DNA from: Nemertoderma westbladi
Taxonomy: Eukaryota > Animalia > Xenacoelomorpha
Direction of reading: 5' to 3'
DNA length: 64,000 bases
Assembly: GCA_032718475.1 (NCBI GenBank)
Contig: JAUCBJ010005018.1
Location: forward strand, 9,613-73,612
The position numbers and the translations under genes are program-made. Shown here in pieces: positions 44,714 through 63,145 of this stretch; position 1 is the first letter of the stretch, and every line of letters begins with the position of its first letter. The notes beneath the pieces were generated by a model, which was not told where the DNA came from, did not search any database, and was given only the letters and a program-made list of their open reading frames with translations.

Positions 44714-45909
44714 TGTAAAAGCTTTTGCGGATATACTCAGTCCCCCTCGCCCGCAAGGTACCGTTATAGGTGTTTTAACGGACATAAAAGTCATTCTTCT
44801 ATATACGTGCTTTGGAGGACATGGTAAGGCAAAAAACCCGCAATGCACCAAATACCCTTGCACAGCTTAGCCTTGATGATTCAGATTACGACATCTAACA
44901 GCTGGTTGCTGACATGGAAACGGCCATTGGACACATGGTTCTTTGTTTGCTTAACAGCCAATCAGAGCGATTTTTTCTGTCGATGTGGAGCTTTTTGGCA
45001 GATCATGCTAGGAGTGTTCAGTCTTACTGTTTTTTCTTGATACTGTTGTGTTGTTGCTATCTAGGCCAGGAACACCGGCTCTAGAGTCAATTCGTTTTCA
45101 TACTTTAGAAGAAACATTAGTAGGCTTAAGATTATAGAGCGTATAACTGTTAACAGTCCAGTCTATGTCATATATCACATATCATTACTTGTCATATCAT
45201 ATCTTAACCTACCGTCTTAATGTTTTCGCTGTTGTCATATTTTGTATCAGTTGGTTGAATCCTATTTGGAGAACATTTATAAAGAACCCAAATTTCCCAA
45301 TTTTCTTGATACACTACAGGTTAGAGAGACGGGTTATATATAGCGATTGCGACTTATATTGTTGTGGTTTGTAGTGAATTTAATGCTATTTGATAAGCAC
45401 TACATGAGTCCGTTGCTGTTCTCTTTATATATGATAAAATTCATTGACGGTCGGCAAATTAGTGAGCAGTATTGTGTGTTACCGGTAGTGTGCATGATTG
45501 TGGCTGATAACTAAGCATTTCCTAAAGAATGCGCCTCATACGTGAATCATAAGCCTTACCGACTTACCGTTGTGATTAGTATAAGTGATATCTCTGTTTA
45601 CCTAGATAGAGCGCCACGTCCTAAAGGAACTGTTAATATTTCCCGAAAGTGAATAATATTAGTCAGAAATTATTTATTAACGATCAATCGAATAATACAG
45701 TAAGCTTACACTGCAATAATAATCTAAGCCCTCAGAATCCAGTCTCCCGGGTATATCCAGCGGGTGAATGGACGCGCACTAGGCTGGCTTCTGCTAATGT
45801 TGTGTTTATTGGTATTAAATATTTGTCAACTTCTAAAGTCTATTTATAAACCATAAGACATATAAATTTTGGCAGGTTAAACTGCTAAAGGTCTTCAAAA
45901 GCGCGTACA
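44714..45909 (+). repeat. 5' LTR
   Basis: TGTAAAAGCTTTTG...CAAAAGCGCGTACA with imperfect terminal inverted repeat (11/14). About 9 substitutions versus the 3' LTR by eye. Confidence 0.97.
44926..45022 (+). promoter_or_regulatory. Putative LTR promoter (CCAAT boxes plus initiator)
   Basis: ATTGG 44926-44930, GCCAATCAG 44957-44965 and Inr-like TCAGT 45018-45022. Motif-only inference. Confidence 0.4.
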
Positions 45910-45974
45910 ATAACAGTTATTGTCTTTATTGCAGTAAGCAATAAAGTTGAAAGTACCGGTCGACCGGTAAACCT

Positions 45975-46102
45975 GAACCGGTACTTCTGTAGGTCAGTAG
46001 GCCCAACTGCCAGAACCGGTACTGCTGTAGGTCCGTAGGTCCAACTGCCAGAACCGGTACTTCTGTAGGTCCATAGGCCCAACTGTCCTAACCGGTACTT
46101 CC
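45975..46102. repeat. ~37-bp tandem repeat in the retrotransposon leader
   Basis: About 3.5 copies of AACCGGTACTKCTGTAGGTC..TAGGYCCAACTGCCAG. Confidence 0.8.
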
Positions 46103-46269
46103 AGTATAAGTACATTAGTATTATTCGATTTGATTATTGTATACCGGTAGGTCTTAGTATTTAATCAGGGACTGCAGCCCTGGTTTTTTATTGAGATTTT
46201 ACTTATTTCTGTCAGTTTTATTTCCTAGTAAGTTAATATTGAGCTGAAGACGTATAAGTCTGCTCAGAT

Positions 46270-46860
46270 TGTTCAGATAATTGTAGGCCAGACTGTTGTC
46301 GGATTGTTGTTGGGTTTGGAGAGATTGTGGCGTGTGTAGAGTTTGTCCGATAGAGTGCCAGTTAGTAAGTTGGGGCAGCCATAGCTGTAAGGTCAATCCC
46401 CTCTTAAAGAATAAGTCGTACTACCGTGTTAGAACGCATACTAACTAACCATTTTGGAATCTGCACATACTGTAGTTTATTTAGGCTTGACAGTATTCTG
46501 CCAGCGTTTTGGCCTGTGTTTGTTTGTGTGGTCTGTTCAGGTACCGTAATAGTTATTGCTCCGATATTTTGTAGGCTGGATTGTTGTCTAGCTACTATTA
46601 GGTCTGAAGAGATTGCTGCGTGTGTAGAGTTTGTCTGATAAAGTGCCAGTTAGTAAGTTGGGGCAGCCATAGCTGTAAGGTCAATCCCCTCTTAAAGAAT
46701 AAGTCGTACTACCGTGTTAGAACGCATACTAACTAACCATTTCGGAATCTACACGTACGGTAGTTTATTTAGGCTTGGTGGTAGTCTGCCAGCGTTTGGT
46801 TTGTATTTTGTTTGAGTATTCTGTACGGGTAGCGTAATATTTATTATTCAGAGTTTATGC
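46270..46860. repeat. Two tandem 288-bp units in the retrotransposon leader
   Basis: GAGATTG...AGTGCCAGTTAGTAAGTTGGGGCAGCCATAGCTGTAAGGTCAATCCCCTCTTAAAGAATAAGTCG... at 46321 and 46609. Confidence 0.85.
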
Positions 46861-48457
46861 GATTATTCGCAACATTCATGTCCCCAAGTTTATTCCTACA
46901 GTAATTGTGTTTGTTACACATACCGTTATAGTTAAATTAACCCCGGTACTACACGGGCTGCTTGGCGTAGGAAAAGACTGGTGACTTTGTGCTTCGGTCA
47001 CTCCAGCAGATGCCGTGGTTCTTTTAACTGTTCAAGTATATTTAACTACTGATTATTTGTTGTACCAGTACTTGTACCTAATTCAGGGTTTAGTGTACAG
47101 TGCTTTCCGAAAGTAATTAGTGTGTGGGCAGTATATTTGTGTTGTAAAGTGGTTAATAGGCACGTTGGATCTGGTAGTCCGCGGTAATTAACTTCCAGGT
47201 AGGAACACTCCGTGATACATAACGTAGTACCTATAGCGATACGGCTATAGGTCGTCAGGCGGTGGTATTTTCTTATCTGGACAGTGCAATATATTTACTA
47301 CTACTTATTATTTTCAAATACCGTAGTACCCTGTCCGTTGTAATAAACAGAATTCTAACCCTTTGTTAGACTGGTTTGTAGACTTCCTGTAAAATTACCC
47401 TAAAATTTCGTACGTAATATTTTTGTTGTGTTTAATTAGAGAATTAATCTCACCCGTATCGTAAGTAATTTGTAGTATTAAGTAACTTAGGTAAATTAGA
47501 ATTATCTGTTTTAGTGTCCCATAAGTAGCACTCCACTGAGAGCGCACAGCTTCTGTGTAGTGACTTCCCCCAGAAATAATAACATTTATTTCAAGTATTG
47601 ACAAAACCCATTTTAAACAGGTATATAAATATTATAAATCAACTCAAACGATTTATAAATAGTAGGCCTGCCATACAACAACTAGGTCTCAATATCAGTT
47701 GGACTACTGCTTAAATAACGGTAATAAAGTAAGTTAAAGTAACCAAGTAACCCTAAAATATTCAGAAATTCAATTATTCTAAAATAATTGACATACCGGT
47801 ATTTACCATAGGCTTATTATATTTATTTCTATAAATTTGGGCTGAAATCATACCGGTACTCTGTAATTAATTCTAGTTCATAATTATACTTATATATACT
47901 ATAAGTGCAAGCTGTATACCGGTATTCACGATAGGCCTATTATATATTTATATATATTTGTGCTAAATTTATATACCGGTACTCTGTGACAAAACTAGTT
48001 TACAATACTTATATATATTATAAGTGTATACCGGTATTCTAATATACTGCAATAAATTACCGGTACTAGGCCAACGGTCATACTGAATTACTAGACTTGC
48101 TTTAACTGTAACTATAGCAGTAAGCATTCAACTGTATAGCTAAACATGTCTGACACCCAGCAAAACCTGTCAGACAGTCTAATCGATACAACCATCTGTG
48201 ACACAGATAGGAGTGTGGAGCGATTAAGAAAGGAGTTCAGCTCACCTCCTACTGAAAGAAAGGTCATCCCTCCAGTAGTAGTATCAGACCCTAAGCTAAT
48301 CCAACACCGTAGGTCTATCATTGGCACTCGGGCCTAAGTCAAGCGGAACCAGGAAGCAGCTGTCCAACAGCAGCAACATCCTAGTCAAGAAACTTGTTCC
48401 CAGCGATCAGATAGCTCCAGTAGTTCGGATACTGTAGAGCTGACCCCCGAACGCGGA

Positions 48458-51400
48458 TTGCAGATGGCGGCTACAGCCTACTCGGACCCCCTTCTCACCC
48501 TTCCTGCCGCAGTACTAACTACTATATTGATTGCGGTGGAAGAACATCAAGCCGATTGGGCGAGAAGTATGAGCGCGACCCAAGATAATTATGCGGGATA
48601 CGCCAGGGAAGAATTGATGTCTGTTGTCGAGTCACAATGGAACTTTCCCGGACCCGGACTCCCGTTAGATTTGTCCGAGGCTACTTGGGAAGATATACAC
48701 AGGATGGGAGTGGCTAAAGATACGATGGATCCAGCTGTTTGGAAGAGGTCGGCAGCAGGATATGTGCAGGGATTCTTCGGCTCCTTAGAGCGATTGGAAG
48801 AACAATTGTTTCGACAACCCCAAGGACCTCAAGAGCAGGAAGAGCTGCTTTATCAAGTACGTGAAAGAACCCTACGCATTAGACTAATCCTATCAGCCTT
48901 TGAGGAAACTTCCAAAAGAAGACAGGACATGTCGCTGCAGGTTGCTGTCAAAACTTGGTTCCAGCGGGTAGGTCTCAAAGTACAAGAAATGGACCAGTGG
49001 AAATCCCAGCTGTCTGAGAGACTAACCTATGAAGAACCAACCGATGCCACCCTTTCTCAAGTGGAAGGCGAAGAGACCGCAGAGAGACCACGAACGAGAG
49101 ACGCCATCGACATTTATCTGTCCGACTATCAGCGTTTCCTAGGAGACGAACAGTTGAGGAGACGGCTGTCTGGACTTTCCCCTAATAGTGAAGGAACCCA
49201 GCGTGTGTTAGACTCAATCGATGCTGAAATGTTAGCTGCAAACCAAGCTAAATTTGATGAAAAACTTCGCCTCGCTAGAGTCCAGGAAGAAGAAGTAAAG
49301 AAAAGACGGATAGAGGAACAAAAGGCGGCGGCCATGACAGAAGCAGAAGTAGAAAGAAAGGCAGCGGCGGCAGAAGCAGAAGCAGAAAGAAAGGCAGCGG
49401 CAGCAGAAAGAAAAGCAGCAAAGGCAGTGGCAGAAGCAGAACGGAGAGCCTCTGAGGAGACTACCCAACTGGAGTTGGAGAATCTGCAAGAGACGCAAGA
49501 CAACATAAATAAACAGTTAACTGCTAGTCACATGCAGATGATGAGAAGATCTACTCCCAAACGCCAGGGATATACGTCATCGGAGGAAAGCGAAACCACC
49601 GATCCTGAAGGCGGAGGAAATAGATCTCGTCTCAGCAGGCGTAGAAAAACATCTTACCGTCACAAATTGCCTGATTTGCCCCCAGCTGTGAGAAGACAAC
49701 TAGCTAGCACAGACTTAAGTAGAATAGAACCTACAGACCAAATTATTAAGGTCAAAAAACTCCCTACTATAGTTGATGAGCCTGAAATAATTAGGCCTGT
49801 CGTTCCCAAAGTCACTCCTGTGCTAGAGACCCCTGTACTTCCAGAGCTTAACTCTAAGTTCCCTTTACACAGTACTACACTGCCTGTACCCGGTAGAACA
49901 GTCCATGAGAATATCCCTGTCCCGGAAGCTGAGAGAGAAATCAAAGATTTGTCTCCCGTCGTCCCGCGTCAGCCCGCTACAATGTTGGCGACTCCCGCTT
50001 CGGCAGTAGAGTGGGTAGAGGAGGGACGGCGGGGGATGAATCTCCTGCTCGGACAGATGCAGGAGACTGTCCACCAACTTAAGGGAACAGTAAGGGAAGG
50101 TAGGGCCGAATTGCAAGAAGTGCAGCAAAGTATCGCGCTAGAACGCGACAAATTAGTCAATATCCAAAAAGGGATACCAATACCCCCTGTAAAATTGTGT
50201 CAACCTGTTAGGTCTGAAGTATTACATGCGCAAGGTGTGGAGCCTACACGCATCTATACTGCTAGTGAAGTAGAAACTCCTATAGCAAACCCTATTAAGG
50301 GTGATTATAGACCTGTTGTTAATGATATTCCTTATAGACCTGATAATGATCCGAGAAATTTATATACCGATAATTCGATATTAAATAACACGATGGCCCA
50401 AGAAAGCTTTACGCGTCAGATGGCTAGAACAGAAGCCCGCCAAGCGGTCAAAGTGGGAGAGATCGTCAAATTCAATGGAGATGAGATGAAATGGTTACCT
50501 TTCAACGAATATTACAAAGACAGCATACAGAACTCTGTGCTGTCTAACGGAGAGAAACTTAAGTTCCTCATCAAGTGCTTGGAAGGACCTCCCAAGTTAA
50601 TGGCGTTAAAGTTTATTGGACATCCAGAAGGATTAAGACAAGTTTGGGATACATTAAACATCAGGTATGGTAACAAGGATAACATAGCTAAGTATTTGTA
50701 TGCAAAATTAGTAGCCCCCCAAAACTTCCTTAGTAGCGGGATTATAGAGTTTTCCGATGAGATTCAGGAGATCTGTAGACAATTGGACTGGTTAGGTAAG
50801 TCTCATGAATATCAGAGTTCCATGGTTATTGGAGCCGTAGTCTCTACTTTACCAAAGGGTGGAGTATGTACACGCTGGGACAAGAAAGTGTTGTACATGA
50901 ATGAACAACAACGACGAAGCCCTACCATGGCTGATCTCATGTCCTTCTTAGATGGTGAGGTAAAACTACAACTCATCAAGCAGTCCAGAGAGAAAACATC
51001 GGAAAATAAGGTAAGTGAGAAACCCGCTTCTAGGAGAAGAGTAACACCGGTGTGTTACACTGACGACGGCGAAAGCCAAGCTTCTCAAGAAGAAGACAGT
51101 GGGAAAGACACTGACCGATCTTACTACGTTAGCAAAACCCCAAAGGACGTAAGTAAATACAAGTCTCGAACCAACGATAGGAGAGAACAGGTTGCCAAGA
51201 CCCCTCCTCAGTCCCCTAACAGAATGCACGTAAGAAAGCCCGAACAAAGAACGAGAGTGCATCAGGTTACCCAAGGTAAAGTGAGTAACATAAAACCTAA
51301 CTGTGCGCTGTGCGACGGTACCCACCGTTTGAGTGCGTGTGCTGAATTTCTAAAGAAATCCCTTGTAGACAGACGTGCAGTCGTATGGGATAAGCGGTTA

Positions 51401-54139
51401 TGCTATAATTGCCTCAGACCAGGACACCAACGGCGAACCTGTTACTCCGACATAAAGTGTGCAAAGTGTAGCGCGAAACATCACATCTTATTACACAGTG
51501 AGTTCGACCGAGACAACCCGAGCCAGGTAAGTGAGCCCGAACTACATGTCCAATTCAGTGATGTAAACGACACTGATCAAGAATCTGAGATGGAAGGATT
51601 CTATACTGACGAATTCTCCGACGCCAACGAATCCTGTTATCTAATCAATACCGCAGTGTATCGAGCACTTACTTATGAAAAGGACACCAACAATGAGTTT
51701 CCCCTAACTACTTTTGCCAGACCACCATCTTGGAAAGCTCCAACTTCCAACGTAGGAATCAGAGAATTTCCTGTAGTGCAGGTAAGAGTTCACGGCCCTA
51801 ACAAAAGTTACATAGTGAACGCACTCCTTGACTCCGGCAGCACAGGAACATTCATCGATCAAGAACTAGCCGAAGATATCTTTGCTGGACAACCCAAATT
51901 CCGGACTAAATTGAATATGTCAGAAATTATGCAGGTTTGGAAATCTACCCTAACGGCAGATTACTATGTAGGTGTGTTGTCCACCCCCCAGGATAAATTA
52001 GGAGCACAAGGTATAAGGTCGGTAAAAATGGTGGCTATAAAGAACTTCGCTACTACTCAAGCAGACCTTTATAATTGGGACGAGGATGAGAGCATCCAAC
52101 ATCTTGAGATACCTCGATTCCAGACAGATTATCCTGGAGTGCAAATCCTCATCGGCCAGAACGCGCATGAGGCGCTCGAGACATTGGAGAAACGGCCTGC
52201 TCAACCACAGCCACTGCAAACCTATGCGGTAAGAACTAGAGTAGGTTGGTACTTTACTGGCCCTTCCCGCAGGACTCTCGAAGAGAGAATGCCACAAGAA
52301 CAAATATACCAAGTAAACGATTGGGAAGTGGAGAGCAGTGAGGTGGACGAACTAACTGAGGGAACACCATACTCCTCAGATAATGACGACATCTACCAAC
52401 TCTTCGATGAAGAGAACACAATCGACCTACTTACAGAAAACCAAACTTGGAAAAATCAGGTGAACCTATGTCAACTGATTCGCCCATCGGAACCCATTGC
52501 TTACAATGACGAACTAAACGATGAGATAGAGCGCTACAACGCTAAAACTCGGGACGAACTAGCCGTACGATTCTTTACTCAAGAACTGGTAGAGCCCAAT
52601 TCATACGATAAGGCTCTATCGATAGAAGAAGAAAGAGCCAAGCAAATCCAGGAAACAACTACACGTTTTTTAAAGGACCAAGGTAGATATGAAATCGGCC
52701 TACCATTTCGAAAACGAGAACCTATATTTATAAATAACAGACCCTTGGCAGAGAAAAGAATCGCTCAATTACATCGACGCCTTACAGCTAATGCTTCAGC
52801 TAAAGAAATGTACCAAACTCAGCTGAAGAAATTTATAACAAAGGGATACGCGGAGCGAGTACCGGAAGGAACACCAGTGACTGAGAGAACGTATTACTTA
52901 ACACATCATTACGTTCCCAAACCCGGTAAACCCCACGAAGTACGAGTCGTATTCGATGGCTCCGCTCTATATATGGGCCAATCCCTCAATTCCGAGTTGT
53001 TACCAGGACCCAACTTACTCCAATCTTTGTTGGGAATACTTTTAAGATTAAGACAATATTCCATCGCGTTCGCCTCCGATATAGAAGGAATGTTCTTACA
53101 AGTCAAGGCGCTGGATAGAGATAGAGACAGCCTGAGATTTCTGTGGTGGCCTGAAGGAGACCTCAATCAGAAACCGGTAGAGTACTGGATGACCATCCAG
53201 GCTTTTGGGATCATATCTAGTCCTTCCAACGCCTGCTCCGTGGTGCGAACCACTGCGAATGACAACCGAGACGCCTTCTCAAAAGAGGTGATAGACAACA
53301 TCAAACGGAATATATACATGGACGACAATTTAAGGTCCCTTCCATCAGTAGAAGAAGCCATAGATGTCGCGAAAGGAACGGTAGAGTGTTTGAAAAGAGG
53401 TGGATTTCGACTGACGAAATTCACTAGCAACTCCCGTGAGTTTCTGGAAGCCATACCGGTAGAAGACCGAGGAACGAAAGACCTAGACTTAATAAAGGAC
53501 GATCTTCCTGAAACCAAGACGCTTGGCTTGAAGTGGGACACTGAAAGAGACATCCTGTTTTTTCAGTTAAAACAGCGAGATAATCCAGTTCGGACCAAAC
53601 GGATTTGTTTAAGTATCCTGAGCACTTATTTCGACCCATTGGGATTTATAAGCCCAGTTATATTGATTGCTCGGAGTTTAGTACAACAAATGTGGCTTGA
53701 AAACCACTCATGGGACGATCCGCTTAAGGGAGAATTGTTAAAGAAATGGATGAAAAGGGAAGATTCTCTACCCGCCATCGAGAACTTTATAATTTCCCGT
53801 GCATATTTTGGCCATGTTCTTCCTACGTATTCCTATCAACTCCATGTGTTTGGAGACGCCAGCGACATGGGAATAGGTATAGTAGCATATCTGCGAGTCG
53901 AAACCCCGGATGGAATCAAAGTCGCCTTGGTTACCTCTAAGGCATTGATTAACAACAAGTTAAAGGTTCCTCGAGCGGAGTTAAAGGCGGCTTTATACGC
54001 TACAGCCATCGGCCGGAACGTAACGGAACAAATCGACTATCCACTGGAGAAAACGGTTTATTGGACCGACGCTTTACTCGTGTTGGAGTATCTAACCAAT
54101 GAAGTCTGTCAGTTCAGCGTTTTGTTACTAACAGGGTAG
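48458..54139 (+). CDS. BEL/Pao polyprotein part 1: Gag, aspartic protease, reverse transcriptase, RNase H (N-part)
   Basis: Gag core KFNGDEMKWLPF...EKLKFLIKCLEG; triple knuckle CALCDGTHRLSAC / CYNCLRPGHQRRTC / CAKCSAKHHILLH; protease LLDSGST; RT RVVFDGS, SDIEGMFLQV, FGIISSP, YMDD; RNase H HVFGDAS, PRAEL, YWTD. Confidence 0.95.
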   Translation: MQMAATAYSDPLLTLPAAVLTTILIAVEEHQADWARSMSATQDNYAGYAREELMSVVESQWNFPGPGLPLDLSEATWEDIHRMGVAKDTMDPAVWKRSAAGYVQGFFGSLERLEEQLFRQPQGPQEQEELLYQVRERTLRIRLILSAFEETSKRRQDMSLQVAVKTWFQRVGLKVQEMDQWKSQLSERLTYEEPTDATLSQVEGEETAERPRTRDAIDIYLSDYQRFLGDEQLRRRLSGLSPNSEGTQRVLDSIDAEMLAANQAKFDEKLRLARVQEEEVKKRRIEEQKAAAMTEAEVERKAAAAEAEAERKAAAAERKAAKAVAEAERRASEETTQLELENLQETQDNINKQLTASHMQMMRRSTPKRQGYTSSEESETTDPEGGGNRSRLSRRRKTSYRHKLPDLPPAVRRQLASTDLSRIEPTDQIIKVKKLPTIVDEPEIIRPVVPKVTPVLETPVLPELNSKFPLHSTTLPVPGRTVHENIPVPEAEREIKDLSPVVPRQPATMLATPASAVEWVEEGRRGMNLLLGQMQETVHQLKGTVREGRAELQEVQQSIALERDKLVNIQKGIPIPPVKLCQPVRSEVLHAQGVEPTRIYTASEVETPIANPIKGDYRPVVNDIPYRPDNDPRNLYTDNSILNNTMAQESFTRQMARTEARQAVKVGEIVKFNGDEMKWLPFNEYYKDSIQNSVLSNGEKLKFLIKCLEGPPKLMALKFIGHPEGLRQVWDTLNIRYGNKDNIAKYLYAKLVAPQNFLSSGIIEFSDEIQEICRQLDWLGKSHEYQSSMVIGAVVSTLPKGGVCTRWDKKVLYMNEQQRRSPTMADLMSFLDGEVKLQLIKQSREKTSENKVSEKPASRRRVTPVCYTDDGESQASQEEDSGKDTDRSYYVSKTPKDVSKYKSRTNDRREQVAKTPPQSPNRMHVRKPEQRTRVHQVTQGKVSNIKPNCALCDGTHRLSACAEFLKKSLVDRRAVVWDKRLCYNCLRPGHQRRTCYSDIKCAKCSAKHHILLHSEFDRDNPSQVSEPELHVQFSDVNDTDQESEMEGFYTDEFSDANESCYLINTAVYRALTYEKDTNNEFPLTTFARPPSWKAPTSNVGIREFPVVQVRVHGPNKSYIVNALLDSGSTGTFIDQELAEDIFAGQPKFRTKLNMSEIMQVWKSTLTADYYVGVLSTPQDKLGAQGIRSVKMVAIKNFATTQADLYNWDEDESIQHLEIPRFQTDYPGVQILIGQNAHEALETLEKRPAQPQPLQTYAVRTRVGWYFTGPSRRTLEERMPQEQIYQVNDWEVESSEVDELTEGTPYSSDNDDIYQLFDEENTIDLLTENQTWKNQVNLCQLIRPSEPIAYNDELNDEIERYNAKTRDELAVRFFTQELVEPNSYDKALSIEEERAKQIQETTTRFLKDQGRYEIGLPFRKREPIFINNRPLAEKRIAQLHRRLTANASAKEMYQTQLKKFITKGYAERVPEGTPVTERTYYLTHHYVPKPGKPHEVRVVFDGSALYMGQSLNSELLPGPNLLQSLLGILLRLRQYSIAFASDIEGMFLQVKALDRDRDSLRFLWWPEGDLNQKPVEYWMTIQAFGIISSPSNACSVVRTTANDNRDAFSKEVIDNIKRNIYMDDNLRSLPSVEEAIDVAKGTVECLKRGGFRLTKFTSNSREFLEAIPVEDRGTKDLDLIKDDLPETKTLGLKWDTERDILFFQLKQRDNPVRTKRICLSILSTYFDPLGFISPVILIARSLVQQMWLENHSWDDPLKGELLKKWMKREDSLPAIENFIISRAYFGHVLPTYSYQLHVFGDASDMGIGIVAYLRVETPDGIKVALVTSKALINNKLKVPRAELKAALYATAIGRNVTEQIDYPLEKTVYWTDALLVLEYLTNEVCQFSVLLLTG

Positions 54140-54258
54140 CTATTATTCTTAGTCGCACAAAGATAGATCAATGGAGACATTGCCCTGGTACGATTAATCC
54201 AGCCGATATCGCCTCCAGGGGAGCAACTCCACAGGAACTGATAGATACTCCAGATTGG

Positions 54259-56067
54259 TTGGGTGGACCCGACTTCCTGAGCAAGGAAGAGGATGAATGG
54301 CCCCCTCACCTTACTACGGCGGAGATTAGACAAGCAAAGGGAGCGGAGACAGTCAAACCTAAAACCCGGGCGAGTAAATCGAAGTTATTTAAACCGACTA
54401 TCGATCTATCTGTATTACATACTTCCGGGAATGATGCTTCGGATCCACAATCCCTCAACACAAATAAGTCTGTTGTGGAAATTAGAGATAGAGATTGGAA
54501 ATCTGGAATACCAGACGTCTCGCAAGGAATCTCACCCATGCTGCAGAGAGCAATGCATAACTACAGTTCCTGGAATCGGCTCTGTAAAGCCGTCACATAT
54601 TTAAGACGATGTTTTCATCATCACTACTCCAGGACGAAGACCACTAGTGATACCGCTCCATTGACATCTGCACAAGTTCATGTTATTAAAAATTTACCCA
54701 AATATAAGACATCTGACTGTTTTCTAAAGGAGAAAATTAGTCACCAGGAGCATGAAGAAACCAATAAGCAGATACTGAGACTCCTGCAATGCTATGAGGA
54801 TTCCGAAAAGTATTTCCTGTTGTTGAGAAATCCGCAGATGCGCTTAAGGGATCGATTCTCGAGCACAATGATAGATGGGTTAATACGTGTTGGAGGAAGA
54901 CTCACCAATGCGCCCTTATCCTTTGACACCAAATTCCCCATACTTATTAGAAATCTTGAAGTACAAATCAAGATGATTGTAGATGTTCACAGTAAACTTT
55001 ATCATGCTGGTAGAGAACGAATTCTTAGCGAAATTCGAACTCGCTATTATTTTGATAAACCCCGTAGAGCTCTGAACCAAGTTCTTAGGAACTGCATACC
55101 CTGTAGGAAAGCATTCAGTAGGCCTTTAACACAGCGAGAGGCAGAATTACCTAGGGAACGAGTAAGCTTCTATGAACCACCTTTTACTAATACTGGTGTA
55201 GATTTATTTGGCCCTATTGAAGTATATCGTGCTAGGACTATAGTCAAGAGATGGTGTGTCATCTTCGTGTGCATGACTTGTAGAGCCATCCATCTCGATA
55301 TGGTGAACGATCTATCTACCAACAGCTTCGTCTTAAGTTTACGACGACAGATCGCTTGCTTCGGGACGAGTAATACCATGAGATCGGATAAGGGAACGAA
55401 CTTCATTGGTGCCAAAAACGAAATACAGGCTTACGTGAAGGACTGGAACCAAAGACAGGTGGACGACCAGCTAAGGATAACAGCGTCTAGCTGGACCTTC
55501 AACGCCGCCGACGCCCCTTGGTGGGGAGGAAGTTGGGAGAGATTAATTCGAAGTGTCAAAACCGCATTTCACTTTATAGTGCCATGCCGCGCGTATCTCA
55601 CCGACGAACTTTTGCGGACGTTAATGGAGGAAATAGCTGCCTATCTCAACGAGAGACCGCTTATGCCAGTCTCATCGAGTCCCGATTCCCTGGAAGCGCT
55701 AACACCCGCGCACTTCCTACTGAAGAAACCTGTAGCCATGCTCCCACGATCGGAGATTGCCGACGGAGACGAATACTGCCGTCGAACTTGGAAACTTATG
55801 CAGTTGCTATCCCGTCGTTTCGCTGACCATTTCGAGAAACATTATCTGCCCACGCTACAACTTCGAACTAAGTGGTTTGCGCAGCAAGAAAACGTCAGCG
55901 CCGGAGATATGGTGCTTATTGTAGATCCAGACCTCCCACGTAAATGGTGGCAGACAGGTCGTATCATCGAGACTCACATCTCGGATGATGGTTTAGTGCG
56001 CTCAGTAGAACTTGTCGTCATGCGGCGTAACTTCAAGAAGCAAGGCATAATCTTTGAGACGCAATAA
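54259..56067 (+). CDS. BEL/Pao polyprotein part 2: RNase H end and integrase (frame open from 54121)
   Basis: W..GPDFL, RVGGRL, HHCC zinc finger (H...YHAG...CIPC), DDE core GVDLFGP / RSDKGTNF / WERLIRSVK, LTPAHFL and C-terminal PRKWWQTGRI...DGLVRSV. Confidence 0.95.
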   Translation: MGGPDFLSKEEDEWPPHLTTAEIRQAKGAETVKPKTRASKSKLFKPTIDLSVLHTSGNDASDPQSLNTNKSVVEIRDRDWKSGIPDVSQGISPMLQRAMHNYSSWNRLCKAVTYLRRCFHHHYSRTKTTSDTAPLTSAQVHVIKNLPKYKTSDCFLKEKISHQEHEETNKQILRLLQCYEDSEKYFLLLRNPQMRLRDRFSSTMIDGLIRVGGRLTNAPLSFDTKFPILIRNLEVQIKMIVDVHSKLYHAGRERILSEIRTRYYFDKPRRALNQVLRNCIPCRKAFSRPLTQREAELPRERVSFYEPPFTNTGVDLFGPIEVYRARTIVKRWCVIFVCMTCRAIHLDMVNDLSTNSFVLSLRRQIACFGTSNTMRSDKGTNFIGAKNEIQAYVKDWNQRQVDDQLRITASSWTFNAADAPWWGGSWERLIRSVKTAFHFIVPCRAYLTDELLRTLMEEIAAYLNERPLMPVSSSPDSLEALTPAHFLLKKPVAMLPRSEIADGDEYCRRTWKLMQLLSRRFADHFEKHYLPTLQLRTKWFAQQENVSAGDMVLIVDPDLPRKWWQTGRIIETHISDDGLVRSVELVVMRRNFKKQGIIFETQ

Positions 56068-56737
56068 CTCAATCGCCCAGTTGGTCGTTTATGTTTACTG
56101 GAAAGAGACAGAGAACTCTCTGGAAACTATGGAAGGCAAGACACTCTTCCCACGACCACCTCCCTAATTCCTCAAACATCTAGGGACTCCCCAACATGAT
56201 ACGTCTGGAGTGGGTGTATGACTATATTATTTTATCTATTTTATTGTATTTTTATATGCGAACTTTATTATGTACTTTATTATAATCGTTTTTATTCAAT
56301 TTTATTTAGTAGAATGTTATTTTAGTGATTATTTAGTAGATTAGTGCAATATATTAGTGTTTATTACGTACGTAATTACTTATAATATACATTTAGTGCG
56401 ACGGCGAGAAAATAATTATTTTTCTCTTTCCTTACTGTCCGTATCATATTATAAATACGTGACTACAGTAAGATGAAATGTCCGTACTTATTAAAGTACA
56501 ATAAAGCCACTACTATATTCAAGTATTATTGGTAGGCAGAGTATTAGGAATGCAAAGTTCAGATCCTCGTGTCTCGGCTAAACCAAGCTCTGGGTAGACC
56601 TTGGAAACGACTTGCCTCTTCACACTGACATTGCTTCGTGCGATATTGCTCTTCTACCTTATATTAAATAATACATATAGTAGCGTGATGTCCATATAAC
56701 AGTAGCGTAAAACGCAAATCAATCTGTTAAACCTTTT

Positions 56738-57030
56738 GACCATCTGTAATTCTAGTCGATTAAGATATCGCGGCACCCACCGATATACTTGAAAGACAAA
56801 TTCTAGAATCAGTGGTTAACGTCCCCAGACAAACTCTGGAATAAATCGGTGCCCATCTTAAATATTAATTTAATATTTAGTAAAATTTGTAAAATTCAGA
56901 TCCTTTAAATTTCTAGTCAATTAAGATATCGCAGCACTTACCGATACTCTTAAAGGACAATTGTCATAGAATTAAGGATCCTATGCCCCCAGACCTGCTC
57001 TGGAATCAAATTGTGTCAATTTTAACATCA
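56738..57030 (+). repeat. Two diverged ~161-bp tandem units, each forming a long hairpin
   Basis: TTCTAGTCRATTAAGATATCGC.GCAC...CCGATA...CCCCAGAC...CTCTGGAAT at 56750 and 56911; complementary arms seen in both units. Confidence 0.7.
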
Positions 57031-57642
57031 AATAATAAAATTCACGGGAATAAATTTAAATTCATATTTTAAATGAATTTCATAAATTGTCATTTTGTGC
57101 AATTTATAACATTCCCAAAATTCCATTAATTAATAGATCATGGGAGCGGAGATTCATCCTATTGAGTGTATTAGAGTGCGAGAATCTCCAACATATAGTC
57201 AATAGCCGATAAAATTAATAAAATCATACATAAAGAGGATATTGACAATTAAAGAATTATTATTAAATAGCATTCCAGATCTGGATGCATGAGAATTACC
57301 CTAATTCTACCGCTAGCATTCCATAATGTCACCATAGCAACACCCACGCTAGAATTAGAAGCAAGTTAAAAGAACAATAGAAAGCTTGTCCCATTGCATA
57401 GCATAGAGAATATATAGCACACTGTTAGTATCCAAGGATACACAGTAATAACGTGACATTCTGGAAGGCACTGACTAACGGACAAATAGCCTGTATGTGT
57501 GCAGTTGGTGACAGTTGTGTGGAATTTGTGCGTTTATAGGTGAATGTTACTGCTAAAGTATGTTTACAGTAGCTAGTCGCAATTGTAAAAGTAGCCCAAC
57601 TCTCCTATAGAAAGAACCTAAGTGGATCCAAGCCTTTGGGAC

Positions 57643-57745
57643 GGACAGTGGAGTGACTTGTGCCGGTTATCGTTGTCGTGCTGTTGCTACATGTTGGCGT
57701 AAACACCGCGACGACGGTACATCGGCGCTGAGAATCCCACTGTCC
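57643..57745 (+). other. ~100-nt imperfect RNA hairpin upstream of the accessory gene
   Basis: GGACAGTGG/CCACTGTCC, GTGCCGGT/ATCGGCGC and TATCGTTGTCGTG/CGCGACGACGGTA pair with several G:U wobbles. Confidence 0.7.
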
Positions 57746-57825
57746 AGGGGCAAAGAGAAGTAGGCAGCGACGCCCGCTCGCCTAAATATAAACTTATTTG
57801 ATATTAATAAACTCAGATAGCAGAT

Positions 57826-58269
57826 ATGACGGAGTTGATAGAAGATGATCTTGGTATTAGGGAGCGATATACCCTACCTTTACAAGCATTTGTGGATAGC
57901 TTAATACGCGGTGAAGCCGATCCAACCATTACGGAGGACGATGGTCGTTATATCGAACCGCCGATGTCCCAAGAGCAACTTGCGCGTGAATTGGACTATC
58001 GAAAATTCACCAATCGCTATACGAATCGTAATGGTACGTATATGGACTTCTTAACTACCGGCCATCCTATCGATTTGCATGATACGGACGATGTAGATAC
58101 AGAGAGGGAAATGGTTCTATTTAAATATCATACCCAGCGGAGTCGTAACGATAAACCGAGAATAGATCACGAAAATTCTATTCATAATAGACTGGAAAGA
58201 GAAAACGTTGAAGAACCGGATAAACGCATCGACTTCAACGAATACCTAGAATTTTTGAGAGAAAGCTAA
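57826..58269 (+). CDS. Accessory ORF-A (147 aa, acidic, unknown function); possibly the N-terminus of the exonuclease protein
   Basis: ATG-initiated ORF with protein-like composition inside the element; the next reading frame is open from 58224. Confidence 0.65.
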   Translation: MTELIEDDLGIRERYTLPLQAFVDSLIRGEADPTITEDDGRYIEPPMSQEQLARELDYRKFTNRYTNRNGTYMDFLTTGHPIDLHDTDDVDTEREMVLFKYHTQRSRNDKPRIDHENSIHNRLERENVEEPDKRIDFNEYLEFLRES

Positions 58270-58310
58270 TATCGCCCTTTGATCCTTACAATCGTCCAGG
58301 ATTAAACCCG

Positions 58311-59768
58311 ATGCAACCCGCCACGGAAGTCGAGGAGAGCGTTATAAGAAACGCTTTAGACGCCATTCGACAGAAAATCGGAAAGGGAACACAAGATTGT
58401 TTAGAGAAACGTAAATTACAACAACAAGTCCAATCGGTGAAGGAGTTAACCTTGCCACAGTTCGATAGAGAAATCCAAAACCTCGAGGAAGACATCGAGC
58501 TTGGACGCACGTATTCTCTACAAGAATTTTTAGATGAACGCTTACAGAGACAAGCGGAAGAAAATCTACTCGAAGAGAAACACACGAAACTGGAAGAGAG
58601 AGAAGAAGCCGCTTTAGCCCAACCGGAAGCTCAAATCCTCATGACGGACCTCTACTCTAAAACCGTTCGGCATCCCTCGATGATTCCACATTTCGGGGAC
58701 AAGCTCTTCGCGACGATACAACCTCAACCGGTGGATATCAGTACAGGATCGCAAAATCTTATCGCTGACGCCCCTATGTTACAGCGTCCGCCGATCGAGG
58801 CCGCTCGTGTTGACGGTATACTCGTTGAACCTCCGGACAATCGAGCGGATCTTGTCCGTCGTATGGTACACGATGTCAACATACGCGCTAGACCTTTACA
58901 GAACTCGTTTTATGGGATTAAAGACCACCCTTATTACGTTAATCTGACTCAATATTATATGGTAAAACCAGAAGACCCGACACATAATTTAAAGTTTCTA
59001 CCACTAATAAATCCTCTAGACATTGTCGAACTCGAACAATTGCAGAAACATCTGGATCAGTTAGTAAAGGTAAACTCATTTAGAAAACCATATAACATTT
59101 CTCGAATCGAGAAAGATATAGAACCTCCTTATAATCTCGATGGATTTATTAAAACTCGATTAGTCCATTGGAATCTAGATGTATTATTTGAAGAAGAGAA
59201 AATACAAAGATATGGAAATGTGGAGACGTATACCACTCGGCACATGAAGTATAGTGATCTCCCTGACGCTAACCAATGCGCCACCTTGTGGCATCCAGTA
59301 GGGATGACCCTAGAGAACGCCACCAAGGAGTGGAATGAAACTCTTAATGTTATTGAGATGTATGGAGTTGTCACCTACGATAATGAAGGTAGCGTTCCGG
59401 TCGGAGAACTAGGAACTACGCGCATGATCCACATACGCGGATTAGCTGGTTCTACCCACGTGTTTACTCGAGCGTGTTCCGACGTGATTGATTATTCTTT
59501 TGAAACTCTCACCGAAACACAAAAGAATCTCCGACATGGACAATTCGAACTCGCGCAGCGTTACGTCATTGACACCGAACGCAAACCGGCCATGGGCATC
59601 GATGGATCGATGTTACCCCAGCCCGTACTCGAGATGTTGTTCAACGAAAGAATCCTTAAAATCGGCTCAGCTGTTTATGGAGATCTCCAAAACGACTTTC
59701 GGAATATGGAGAACATTCCATACCCTTTCGTTGATACTCAGCTGATTGCTCCCTGGGCAGAAGGTTGA
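58311..59768 (+). CDS. Accessory ORF-B: coiled-coil N-part plus N-half of a DEDDy 3'-5' exonuclease (WRN/EXD/Mut-7-like)
   Basis: ExoI VVTYDNEG; LPQPVLEMLFNERILKIGSAVYGDL (ExoII; compare LP..L..LL.d..I.KvG..i..D); FVDTQLIA. Confidence 0.75.
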   Translation: MQPATEVEESVIRNALDAIRQKIGKGTQDCLEKRKLQQQVQSVKELTLPQFDREIQNLEEDIELGRTYSLQEFLDERLQRQAEENLLEEKHTKLEEREEAALAQPEAQILMTDLYSKTVRHPSMIPHFGDKLFATIQPQPVDISTGSQNLIADAPMLQRPPIEAARVDGILVEPPDNRADLVRRMVHDVNIRARPLQNSFYGIKDHPYYVNLTQYYMVKPEDPTHNLKFLPLINPLDIVELEQLQKHLDQLVKVNSFRKPYNISRIEKDIEPPYNLDGFIKTRLVHWNLDVLFEEEKIQRYGNVETYTTRHMKYSDLPDANQCATLWHPVGMTLENATKEWNETLNVIEMYGVVTYDNEGSVPVGELGTTRMIHIRGLAGSTHVFTRACSDVIDYSFETLTETQKNLRHGQFELAQRYVIDTERKPAMGIDGSMLPQPVLEMLFNERILKIGSAVYGDLQNDFRNMENIPYPFVDTQLIAPWAEG

Positions 59769-59783
59769 GGTTTCTTCCGCACT

Positions 59784-61052
59784 ATGTATGCTAATACGTC
59801 TAGCAACATTACAAAGGTGCAACGAACTTCCATCGGACATCTTGCCTTTCAGGAATACGGATGGAATTTCAAAGTCGGAAATCCCATTAACTATCAACAA
59901 GTATACGGAGACCATTATTCTCGATTATACTTTGATGGACCATTGACCGCACCTGGCGCCGTGTATAGCTTTATGAGTGTTCCACTCCGTCCCTCCTTAG
60001 CTATATACACGATCTTTGAAAACACCGCACTTGCCGGTTGGCTAGCCGATGTGTGCAGTCGTACTATACGCGCCCATCCATTAATACTTGGGACCAAACT
60101 CGCTAAGCTAGATGAACATAATAAATTCATCCGCTTCGAATGTTTCCGGCGATTTAAATCAGATTCAATGCAGACTCAATATTACTTATTATATATTATT
60201 ATTATTATAGTACTTATTACTTATTGCAGACTCAATAACTTGCATATCTTTGCGGTTTGCCCTCAATTTATGACTCAATGTCACCATTGTCAACTAAAGG
60301 GACATGCCAGTTTCGATTGCCCTTTTAATCACAATTTGGAAAGCGTAGATGAAATGATCACACTACGTTACATCAGAGCTTGGGAAGCGAACGCTGATTT
60401 ACATTGTGATTCGCGCCATCGCTATTATCCCGGACGCGCTTACGAAGGAGTTTATGCGTTCCATCCTTATCTCTTCGCTTCGGTCGAACAGAAATCACGC
60501 ATATCGAGTTACGAGCTACTGAAGCGCGTCGGAGAATGTATTTCAACCAAATTCGTACGCAAATTTCTCAGGAGTGTTAATCCTAGCGACCTTCATTCCT
60601 ATAACTTAATCAATTATATCCGTCAGGATCCGGACTATGGAGACTTGTTTGTTAACTCACACCCCGAGTTACAGGAAGTATATCGACGGCCTTACGAATA
60701 CCGAGCCCGCGAACGCGAGTTGGAAAGAACCATTAAACCCCGGAGGTTTCTAACTGCCTATGGTCCACCCACGGCCCTCGTTCAGACCACTCGCAAAGGA
60801 CCCGTAAGAGCGGCTGTCTTAAAACGAGCTCTCAAAGCCGTTAGACCCCTCTCCCCCGACGTTGATGTCAATCAACCCGGTACTTCGACTGGCGGATACA
60901 CCGACCATAATCCTACACCCTCTGATGCAATCATATTGCACCCTTCACCCAGGAGTTATAGCCCTCCTTGTAAAGTGGCTCGCCCCAAAGAGAAAAGGAC
61001 TCTGGCTAGCTTTAAAAAACTGCGTAAACGCCGTCCGCGCAAGAAAGACTAA
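59784..61052 (+). CDS. Accessory ORF-C (in frame with ORF-B across one TGA): exonuclease C-half, CCHC zinc knuckle, basic tail
   Basis: SIGHLAFQEYGWNFK (SL..L....G..l.K), ExoIII-like PLRPSLAIYTIFE, CHHCQLKGHASFDC (CX2CX4HX4C) and C-terminal KKLRKRRPRKKD. Confidence 0.75.
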   Translation: MYANTSSNITKVQRTSIGHLAFQEYGWNFKVGNPINYQQVYGDHYSRLYFDGPLTAPGAVYSFMSVPLRPSLAIYTIFENTALAGWLADVCSRTIRAHPLILGTKLAKLDEHNKFIRFECFRRFKSDSMQTQYYLLYIIIIIVLITYCRLNNLHIFAVCPQFMTQCHHCQLKGHASFDCPFNHNLESVDEMITLRYIRAWEANADLHCDSRHRYYPGRAYEGVYAFHPYLFASVEQKSRISSYELLKRVGECISTKFVRKFLRSVNPSDLHSYNLINYIRQDPDYGDLFVNSHPELQEVYRRPYEYRARERELERTIKPRRFLTAYGPPTALVQTTRKGPVRAAVLKRALKAVRPLSPDVDVNQPGTSTGGYTDHNPTPSDAIILHPSPRSYSPPCKVARPKEKRTLASFKKLRKRRPRKKD

Positions 61053-61122
61053 CTGTTTAGAGTATTTACATATATTAGAAACTGTGATTTTTGTATATTT
61101 ATAAACTTGAATCCCATTTTCT

Positions 61123-61130
61123 GGGAGCGG
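61123..61130 (+). promoter_or_regulatory. Polypurine tract (short, imperfect)
   Basis: GGGAGCGG directly abuts the 3' LTR TG. Confidence 0.65.
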
Positions 61131-62326
61131 TGTAAAAGCTTTTGCGGATATACTCAGTCCCCCTCGCCCGCAAGGTACCGTTATAGGTGTTTTAACGGAC
61201 ATAAAAGTCATTCTTCTATATACGTGCTTTGGAGGACATGGTAAGGCAAAAAAACCGCAATGCACCAAATACCCTTGCACAGCTTAGCCTTGATGATTCA
61301 GATTACGACATCTAACAGCTGGTTGCTGACATGGAAACGGCCATTGGACACATGGTTCTTTGTTTGCTTAACAGCCAATCAGAGCGATTTTTTCTGTCGA
61401 TGTGGAGCTTTTTGGCAGATCATGCTAGGAGTGTTCAGTCTTACTGTTTTTTCTTGATACTGTTGTGTTGTTGCTATCTAGGCCAGGAACACCAGCTCTA
61501 GAGTCAATTCGTTTTCATACTTTAGAAGAAACATTAGTAGGCTTAAGATTATAGAGCGTATAACTGTTAACAGTCCAGTCTATGTCATATATCACATATC
61601 ATTACTTGTCATATCATATCTTAACCTACCGTCTTAATGTTTTCGCTGTTGTCATATTTTGTATCAGTTGGTTGAATACTATTTGGAGAACATTTATAAA
61701 GAACCCAAATTTCCCAATTTTCTTGATACACTACAGGTTAGAGAGACGGGTTATATATAGCGATTGCGACTTATATTGTTGTGGTTTGTAGTGAATTTAA
61801 TGCTATTTGATAAGAACTACATGAGTCTGTTACTGTTCTCTTTATATATGATAAAATTCATTGATGGTCGGCAAATTAGTGAGCAGTATTGTGTGTTACC
61901 GGTAGTGTGCATGATTGTGGCTGATAACTAAGCATTTCCTAAAGAATGCGCCTCATACGTGAATCATAAGCCTTACCGACTTACCGTTGTGATTAGTATA
62001 AGTCATATCTCTGTTTACCTAGATAGAGCGCCACGTCCTAAAGGAACTGTTAATATTTCCCGAAAGTGAATAATATTAGTCAGAAATTATTTATTAACGA
62101 TCAATCGAATAATACAGTAAGCTTACACTGCAATAATAATCTAAGCCCTCAGAATCCAGTCTCCCGGGTATATCCAGCGGGTGAATGGACGCGCACTAGG
62201 CTGGCTTCTGCTAATGTTGTGTTTATTGGTATTAAATATTTGTCAACTTCTAAAGTCTATTTATAAACCAAAAGACATATAAATTTTGGCAGGTTAAACT
62301 GCTAAAGGTCTTCAAAAGCGCGTACA
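61131..62326 (+). repeat. 3' LTR
   Basis: Co-linear 1196-bp copy of 44714-45909. Confidence 0.97.
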
Positions 62327-63145
62327 CCCCCTCATACTCCTAACCATCTGGACAACAACGGTTGTTTGGGTCATCATCATACTCCTAACCATCTGGGCAA
62401 CAACGGTTGTTTGGGTCCCCCTCATACTCCTAACCATATGGGCAACAACGGTTGTTTGGATCCCCCTCATACTCCTAACCATCTGGGCAACAACGGTTGG
62501 TTGGGTCCCCCTCATACTCCTAACCATATGGGCAACAACGGTTGTTTGGGTCCGGGATCAATGAAGTGCCCTCATACTCCTAACCATATGGGCAACAACG
62601 GTTGTTTGGGTCCGGGATCAATGAAGTGCCCTCATACTCCTAACCATCTGGGCAACAACGGTTGTTTGGGTCCCCCTCATACTCCTAACCATCTGGGCAA
62701 CAACGGTTGTTTGGGCCCCCCTCATACTCCTAACCATCTGGGCAACAACGGTTAATGTTTGGGCCCCCCTCATATTCCTAACCATCTGGGCAACAACGGT
62801 TATTTGGATAACCCTCATACTCCTAACCATCTGGGCAACAACGGTTGTTTGGATCCCCCTCATACTCCTAACCATCTGGGCAACAACGGTTATTTGGATA
62901 ACCCTCATACTCCTAACCACCTGGGCAACAACGGTTGTTTGGATCCCCCTCATACTCCTAACCATCTGGGCAACAACGGTTGTTTGGATCCCCATCATAC
63001 TCCTAACTATATGGGCAATAACGGTTGTTTGGGACCCCCTCATACTCCTAACCATATGGGCAACAACGGTTGTTTGGGTCCGGGATCAATGAAGTGCCCT
63101 CATACTCCTAACCATCTGGGCAATAACGGTTGTTTGGTTCCGGGA
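62327..63145. repeat. 45-bp minisatellite, right part
   Basis: Same unit resumes in register after the TSD; some 60-bp variants contain CCGGGATCAATGAAGTG. Confidence 0.95.

Follow-up and report, generated by a model that had tools for sequence, protein, structure and literature searches.

A predicted RNase D-like DEDDy nuclease domain with zinc knuckles in the env position of a young 17.6-kb BEL/Pao retrotransposon from Nemertoderma westbladi

Introduction

What does a retrotransposon carry when the place of env is taken by something else, and is this cargo part of the element or an accident of one copy? The question is raised by a complete long terminal repeat (LTR) element of the BEL/Pao type, which occupies positions 44714–62326 (17,613 bp, + strand) of a 64,000-nt window of Nemertoderma westbladi DNA. 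The window is the whole stretch that was analysed, and all parts of the element given below lie on its + strand. Downstream of pol, in the env position, a third coding region is found, which an earlier note on this DNA had read as a captured DEDDy 3'-5' exonuclease with a zinc knuckle, travelling with the element and perhaps acting against host piRNAs or as a proofreading helper.

Domain structure of the accessory gene

The accessory frame (58224–61052, first ATG at 58311) consists of two open reading frames (ORFs), ORF-B (58224–59768) and ORF-C (59769–61052), which are separated by a single in-frame stop at 59766–59768. The joined protein (P0001, more than 900 aa) comprises a coiled or charged N-terminal part, a DEDDy-like domain, one or more knuckles and a basic tail. 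The predicted RNase D-like DEDDy domain is encoded at 59304–60089, with D386, E388, D487, Y595 and E599 (P0001 numbering) as candidate catalytic residues. An ExoI-like motif (59367–59390), an ExoII-like motif (59655–59687), a DTQ motif (59727–59750), the word SIGHLA (59829–59846) and an ExoIII-like motif (59982–60020) follow one another in the same frame; in the last of these a Glu (E599) stands where DEDDy proteins have Asp. The knuckle region (60222–60320) contains one knuckle remnant and one complete CX2CX4HX4C knuckle (60279–60320). It matches zf-CCHC_3 with E 0.24 and aligns with knuckles 2–3 of the homolog P0002 described below, with a score that was equalled by 4 of 2000 shuffles. The K/R-rich C-terminal tail (61014–61049) resembles a nuclear localisation signal, as judged by inspection only. 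Thus the motifs, the knuckle and the tail quoted in the earlier note were all found in their places and in one frame.

An AT-rich stretch at 60156–~60220, with a 13-bp direct repeat on both flanks, lies between domain and knuckles. Hydropathy exceeds 1.6 only at residues 648–679, inside this stretch. Since the stretch is private to the present copy (see below), nothing env-like remains, and the signal peptide and transmembrane anchor of an env glycoprotein were not found in the accessory ORF; the earlier note had likewise seen no signal peptide.

Upstream lies ORF-A (57826–58269, 147 aa), in a different frame from ORF-B and ORF-C. Searches of Pfam, NCBIfam and PHROGs gave no family for it, and an Atlas lead to DUF444 was below the recognition threshold and was rejected. 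ORF-A may be part of the protein that the nuclease ORF encodes, or it may be separate.

Assignment of the accessory domain to the DEDDy fold

The accessory domain very probably adopts a DEDDy fold. In NCBIfam P0001 matched just two models, both of RNase D and both at ExoII, the better one with E 0.008. A single homolog (P0002) was found among 1.84 billion proteins, with E 6.5e-6 and 29% identity over 171 residues. It is an unnamed 648-aa protein on one 9.4-kb ENA contig, in which DxE, the ExoII Asp, DTQ and YxxxE are followed by three knuckles. Word-indexed homolog searches returned only P0002 (4114, 1057 and 3522 candidates with lengths of 518–1649, 356–1134 and 135–510, respectively), and no match turned up in viral or metagenome contigs, in phages or in plasmids. 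As a lead only, the Atlas neighbours of P0002 include clusters with PF01612 and zf-CCHC (0.86) and EXD1-like clusters (0.77).

A profile built from P0001 and P0002 was searched blind over 201 proteobacterial genomes. Weak matches were obtained in 44 of them (best E 0.0013), with none in E. coli nor in 157 of the 201. Ten of 12 matches lay within PF01612 domains (the genomes had also been searched with PF01612), and at 19 of 20 fetched loci a DEDDy domain was present. When the re-aligned pair was compared with 70 bacterial DEDDy domains by hhalign, the probability was 91.3 and the score 45.1, in an alignment that runs from ExoI to ExoIII and is 143 columns long. Among 300 column shuffles the highest score was 24.8, the reversed pair scored 18.4, and the probability of the decoys was at most 10.5%. 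The group fit, for which bacterial sets were used, gave 75.5 for RNase D-type domains versus 8.4 and 1.8 for the standalone type and 3.9 for Pol A exonucleases, and RNase D took the first rank in every comparison made. Across 72 alignment settings ExoII was in register in all 72 and ExoI in 50, and both the D-x-E of ExoI and the Asp of ExoII were found. One alignment (A2), in which ExoI and ExoIII were out of register, was dropped.

Several observations weigh against this assignment. In the Pfam check that the earlier note had proposed for the joined ORF, P0001 had no exonuclease match even with E values as high as 1, and P0002 itself reached PF01612 with E 0.2 only. Sequence searches of the PDB gave nothing for the domain or for the pair profile. 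Among the motifs ExoII alone scores by itself. ExoIII was in register in only 18 of 72 settings, and in 13 of the 72 this held for the five residues together. In some alignments the word YVIDTE at 450–452 rivals the chosen ExoI; D386/E388 is preferred because P0002 aligns there together with the following strands. The ExoIII acid is Asp in 70 of 70 bacterial reference domains, but Glu in both P0001 and P0002. An unaided, single-sequence structure model had a pLDDT (predicted local distance difference test) of 33.7. A model seeded with the 70 DEDDy domains, at a setting picked for register, reached 61.0, with 72–91 in the motif blocks. Its best match is RNase D (Foldseek E 1.9e-4; Z 13.7, root-mean-square deviation 3.7 over 163 residues), followed by NrnC-like proteins, Egl, Exd1, Nibbler (Z 11.3 for Exd1 and Nibbler) and WRN. 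This match is circular, because the model was seeded with DEDDy sequences, and the model indicates compatibility with the RNase D fold only.

The PHROGs search gave no exonuclease for P0001. Scored alone against 500 shuffles, P0001 reached 9.7 versus 5.2 bits, through ExoII only. A common block of P0001 and P0002 after the knuckles, seen by eye, was equalled by 1988 of 2000 shuffles and was rejected. Taken with the NCBIfam matches, P0002, the hhalign result and the blind search, the claim of a DEDDy-type domain with a knuckle in the env position is supported. The narrower placement in the WRN/EXD2/Mut-7/EXD1/Egalitarian group, which the earlier note had suggested, is at most conceivable, as RNase D gave the best fit among the bacterial groups compared.

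The accessory gene in other copies of the family

The stretch or parts of it are present in six public sequencing runs from four studies, and the contigs of five runs (X1–X5) were compared; contig depth is no measure of copy number. In four of four runs, contigs with 1–20% divergence cover all 30 bins, and the family is multi-copy. At the stop (59766–59768), the whole depth of X1, X3, X4 and X5 belongs to other letters; in X2 these account for 131,513.6 of 131,539.9 depth units. The stop is therefore private to the present copy. The same holds for the AT-rich stretch, where depth was 46 in X1 versus more than 200,000 in the flanking bins, and 0 in X4 and X5. Contigs continue into different sequence on both sides of 60156–~60220, one of them for 327 letters, which adds to the earlier note that other copies carry a longer, different sequence here; for this reason an intron at this place, which had been considered, was dropped. 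Among the runs compared no contig reaches from pol to the accessory gene.

For the region 59300–60460 the best 40 of 222 differences were taken, and two at or just before the stop were removed. Of the remaining 38 differences, 33 are synonymous, compared with 12.2 ± 2.8 expected from random placement; older differences may be over-represented by the filter, and the sites are not independent events. Random placement of the same changes yielded at most 24 synonymous differences in 20,000 draws; the corresponding omega is roughly 0.07. The codons of the candidate catalytic residues are touched by none of these 38. Among the differences listed (40 of 1054), 6 of 8 are synonymous in the N-terminal accessory part (P 0.02) and 5 of 8 in ORF-A (P 0.06). 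Because synonymous differences exceed the null expectation to this extent, we conclude that the accessory gene is under purifying selection in the family. Neutral evolution or absence from other copies is not what was found, and the view of a cargo that travels with the element, rather than a one-off capture, is upheld by the selection, by the copy-private stop and AT-rich lesions and by the divergent contigs that cover the region.

Several X5 contigs match only from the ORF-A/ORF-B junction (58264–58269) and have 155–214 other letters upstream; the part before ORF-B may therefore differ between subfamilies. Contig depth dips at 58265–58771. Run X4 is labelled as a second organism; 0.31 of the words are present in it, in pieces that are ~82–99% alike.

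Active site and possible function

Between P0001 and P0002 the residues D, E, D and Y are conserved at 29% identity, with an acid in the fifth place. The Y-x3-D of a DEDDy ExoIII motif was not found; the Tyr is present, and the fifth residue is Glu. With Glu for Asp in both proteins, catalysis is a prediction only, and the residue pattern is compatible with an altered enzyme as well as with a pocket for binding. According to bioRxiv 10.1101/2025.08.03.668247, none of the five DEDDy residues, all of which Egalitarian keeps, is required there for localising RNA, and Exd1 has no activity.

We tentatively propose, at somewhat less than an even chance, that the RNase D-like DEDDy and knuckle protein binds RNA of the element itself and that 3' ends are trimmed or held by it. 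In this reading the predicted product of the third gene combines a 3'-5' exonuclease domain of the RNase D-like (DEDDy) kind with zinc knuckles of the nucleocapsid type, and it would be expressed separately, from a spliced or an internal transcript. RNA would be the substrate, its structured 3' ends being trimmed during the replication cycle of the element. CCHC knuckles bind single-stranded nucleic acid and may direct the protein to the element's own RNA. A primer made by the element itself is one candidate for such a substrate: no tRNA-type primer-binding site was seen, but a 10-nt match to the own LTR was (see below).

A protein of this kind could also be a non-catalytic RNA-binding adaptor similar to Egalitarian or Exd1, which would cap or hold the RNA of the element at its 3' end and help to protect or transport the ribonucleoprotein. 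The exchange of the last catalytic Asp for Glu in both proteins argues for such an adaptor, as do the dispensable DEDDy residues of Egalitarian and the inactive Exd1 (bioRxiv 10.1101/2025.08.03.668247), and the knuckles and the charged N-terminal part would be suitable. We nevertheless consider it rather unlikely, since D, E, D, Y and a fifth acid that are kept at 29% identity fit a working or near-working active site. Counter-defence is unlikely as well. Here the nuclease would trim or destroy host small RNAs (precursors of PIWI-interacting RNAs (piRNAs), or small interfering RNAs) or sequester piRNA factors, and silencing would be relieved. The Atlas leads for P0002 include EXD1-like clusters (0.77), Nibbler and Exd1 are structural neighbours of the seeded and hence circular model (Z 11.3), the family is multi-copy and young, and a precedent for immune suppression is provided by arenavirus ExoN (PMC7968707). 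For this role, however, as for the proofreading role that the earlier note had likewise put forward, no specific support was obtained; both are conceivable, with RNase D first in every comparison with the bacterial reference sets. Mature piRNAs are 2'-O-methylated and PIWI-bound, which also counts against counter-defence. In rotifers, small RNAs still cover the element families that possess a DEDDy ORF3 (PMC5408684).

A proofreading helper for reverse transcriptase, comparable to nidovirus ExoN, might allow a genome of 17.6 kb, far above the 4.2–10 kb of the family (PMC8742986). This is improbable: the gene is a separate ORF without fusion to pol, the fit of the Pol A exonucleases is poor (probability 3.9 versus 75.5 for RNase D-type domains), the accessory block, the 2.4-kb leader and the long LTRs make up much of the extra length, and nidovirus ExoN is of the DEDDh type (PMC7968707). 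A neutral passenger that decays in the element, be it a host gene transduced on a single occasion or a nested insertion, would explain the stop and the replaced segment in the ORF of the present copy, and the linkage of gene and pol is seen in this copy only. Both lesions are copy-private, however, 33 of 38 differences are synonymous, divergent contigs cover all bins in all four runs, and inner LTRs or terminal repeats of a nested insertion were not found within the element. The passenger is thus highly improbable and is largely refuted.

Beyond the proposed binding and trimming of the element's own RNA, P0001 and P0002 may represent a widespread, hitherto unrecognised class of retroelement accessory nucleases with a DEDDy domain, an ExoIII Glu and a CCHC array, by which a BEL/Pao family would act against the small-RNA pathway of its host or bring a self-made primer to its mature form. 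We regard this as doubtful, though worth stating. If true, the class would be a kind of retrotransposon-encoded enzyme that was not found in the literature searched, in an element of almost twice the maximum size of its family. The accessory protein is a tractable handle on the question of counter-defence enzymes or of self-RNA processing in animal retrotransposons.

Comparison with known systems

RNase D-like DEDDy ORF3s were described in 2017 by Rodriguez, Kenefick and Arkhipova in Juno and Vesta, LTR elements of bdelloid rotifers, as well as in Terminons; their motif is altered to DEED (PMC5408684). The rotifer ORF3 is shared with Athena/Terminon elements, and the role proposed for it is the same as here. 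Variation was tested in that study only in the env and GDSL ORFs, and selection on the DEDDy ORF3 was not reported. The case is cited in PMC6431247, PMC6338049 and PMC5718144. Compared by description, the present element resembles Juno and Vesta in that an RNase D-like DEDDy gene with an altered acidic motif follows pol as ORF3, inside an LTR element and in the place of env. It differs from them in its BEL/Pao host element, in a Glu at ExoIII instead of DEED, in CCHC knuckles after the domain, in an ORF of more than 900 aa, in an element size of 17.6 kb and in the purifying selection shown for the DEDDy gene. Hence superfamily, domain layout, altered ExoIII, record size and direct evidence of constraint are new with respect to the rotifer case.

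The novelty of a nuclease cargo is smaller than the earlier note had suspected. No BEL/Pao element with a nuclease gene was found in the open literature (Repbase, Dfam, GyDB and subscription papers lay outside the search), but DEDDy ORF3s in LTR retrotransposons have been known since 2017 (PMC5408684). The main text of PMC3118150 is without the word nuclease; its supplement of element sequences may bear on novelty. The role of retrotransposon-borne DEDDy genes has been an open question since 2017, and the present case adds a different superfamily and a young multi-copy family. The different superfamily and the clear purifying selection show that the element benefits from its cargo, and that genes of this kind are captured or exchanged repeatedly.

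The order and spacing of ExoI, ExoII, DTQ and ExoIII are shared with RNase D, Rrp6, Egalitarian, EXD1, Nibbler and WRN, RNase D being the best fit. Unlike these proteins, P0001 has the ExoIII Glu and inserts of ~30 residues, located after the third strand as well as before ExoIII; an HRDC domain was not detected, and knuckles stand in its place. Dada elements of Laccaria and Ectocarpus also contain a transposon-borne DEDDy 3'-5' exonuclease, but these are DNA transposons with the domain within the transposase and four intact acids (PMC3706591). P0002 has the same domain, the ExoIII Glu and downstream CCHC knuckles in common with P0001. It differs in three knuckles and the lack of a long N-terminal part, and is known from the protein alone, not as a retrotransposon gene. 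Its first knuckle (residues 501–553) has the spacing CX2CX3HX4C, which is shared with the first gag knuckle of the present element and is therefore a hint that the knuckle array may derive from a BEL gag.

The host element

The element belongs to BEL/Pao, as the earlier note had stated. Its first gag-pol frame (48338–54139) contains a long low-complexity N-terminus, DUF1759, three knuckles, protease, reverse transcriptase (YMDD) and RNase H; a second pol frame (54103–56067) encodes integrase with H2C2 and DUF5641. Four Pfam domains are above their cut-offs: PF03564 (DUF1759, E 2.6e-12), PF05380 (Peptidase_A17, E 3.6e-35), PF17921 (Integrase_H2C2, E 2.2e-7) and PF18701 (DUF5641, E 3.9e-18). The protease, YMDD, RNase H and integrase motifs are in order after gag, among Pao-type domains. 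In the present copy pol is divided over two frames, with a stop before the usual tail. At 48338–50470, ~700 charged, low-complexity codons precede DUF1759 and include a 33-bp repeat; the Pfam search gave no family for them.

The 5' LTR (44714–45909) and the 3' LTR (61131–62326) are 1196 bp long, begin with TG and end with CA, and differ at 9 positions (99.25% identity). A target duplication of 5 bp, CCCCC, flanks the element at both ends. On the strength of the nearly identical LTRs and the target duplication we conclude that the element is young and has recently moved. It breaks a satellite of 45-bp period, which stops at 44714 and resumes at 62327. Satellite arrays with 35-, 45- and 47-bp periods occupy much of the window (12900–44714 and 62327–63100), and one unit is the insertion site.

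Belpaoviridae have LTRs of 0.2–1.2 kb, into which the 1.2-kb LTRs of the element fall. According to their ICTV profile they are 4.2–10 kb long, and the only third genes named there are env-like (PMC8742986). The element agrees with this family in its gag with knuckles, the order of protease, reverse transcriptase, RNase H and integrase, and the Pao-specific Pfam domains. It differs in its nuclease-like third gene, in the lack of a visible tRNA-type primer-binding site and in its length, which exceeds a descriptive range rather than a demarcation rule; much of the excess is due to the accessory block, the leader and the LTRs. Size and apparent absence of a tRNA primer site thus stretch the current definition of the Belpaoviridae.

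Leader, primer site and spacer

Belpaoviridae have an 18-nt primer-binding site for tRNA-Arg or tRNA-Gly; in the present element no TGG occurs in the 40 nt after the 5' LTR. At the primer-binding position, 10 nt without TGG (45911–45920) are complementary to the own LTR (45143–45152); a self-complement of this length at offsets 0–3 was reached in 24 of 3930 control windows. Possibly the element is self-primed by pairing of this site with the LTR. Directly at the end of the 5' LTR, 45908–45922 form a perfect hairpin. The 2.4-kb leader (45910–48337) contains tandem duplications of 38, 288 and 123 bp.

An AT-rich non-coding spacer of 1.76 kb (56068–57825, 36% GC) separates pol from the accessory block and is present in contigs of four runs. 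It may contain a promoter or a splice acceptor for the accessory gene. A repeat with 161-bp spacing at 56750/56911 seems to vary in copy number among contigs. A short purine-rich tract (61123–61130) lies immediately before the 3' LTR. After the integrase, at 56208–56219, a purine tract is followed by TGT, as at the true start of the 3' LTR (61123–61133); this tract may be left over from an earlier 3' end, the 4.9-kb accessory block having been gained later.

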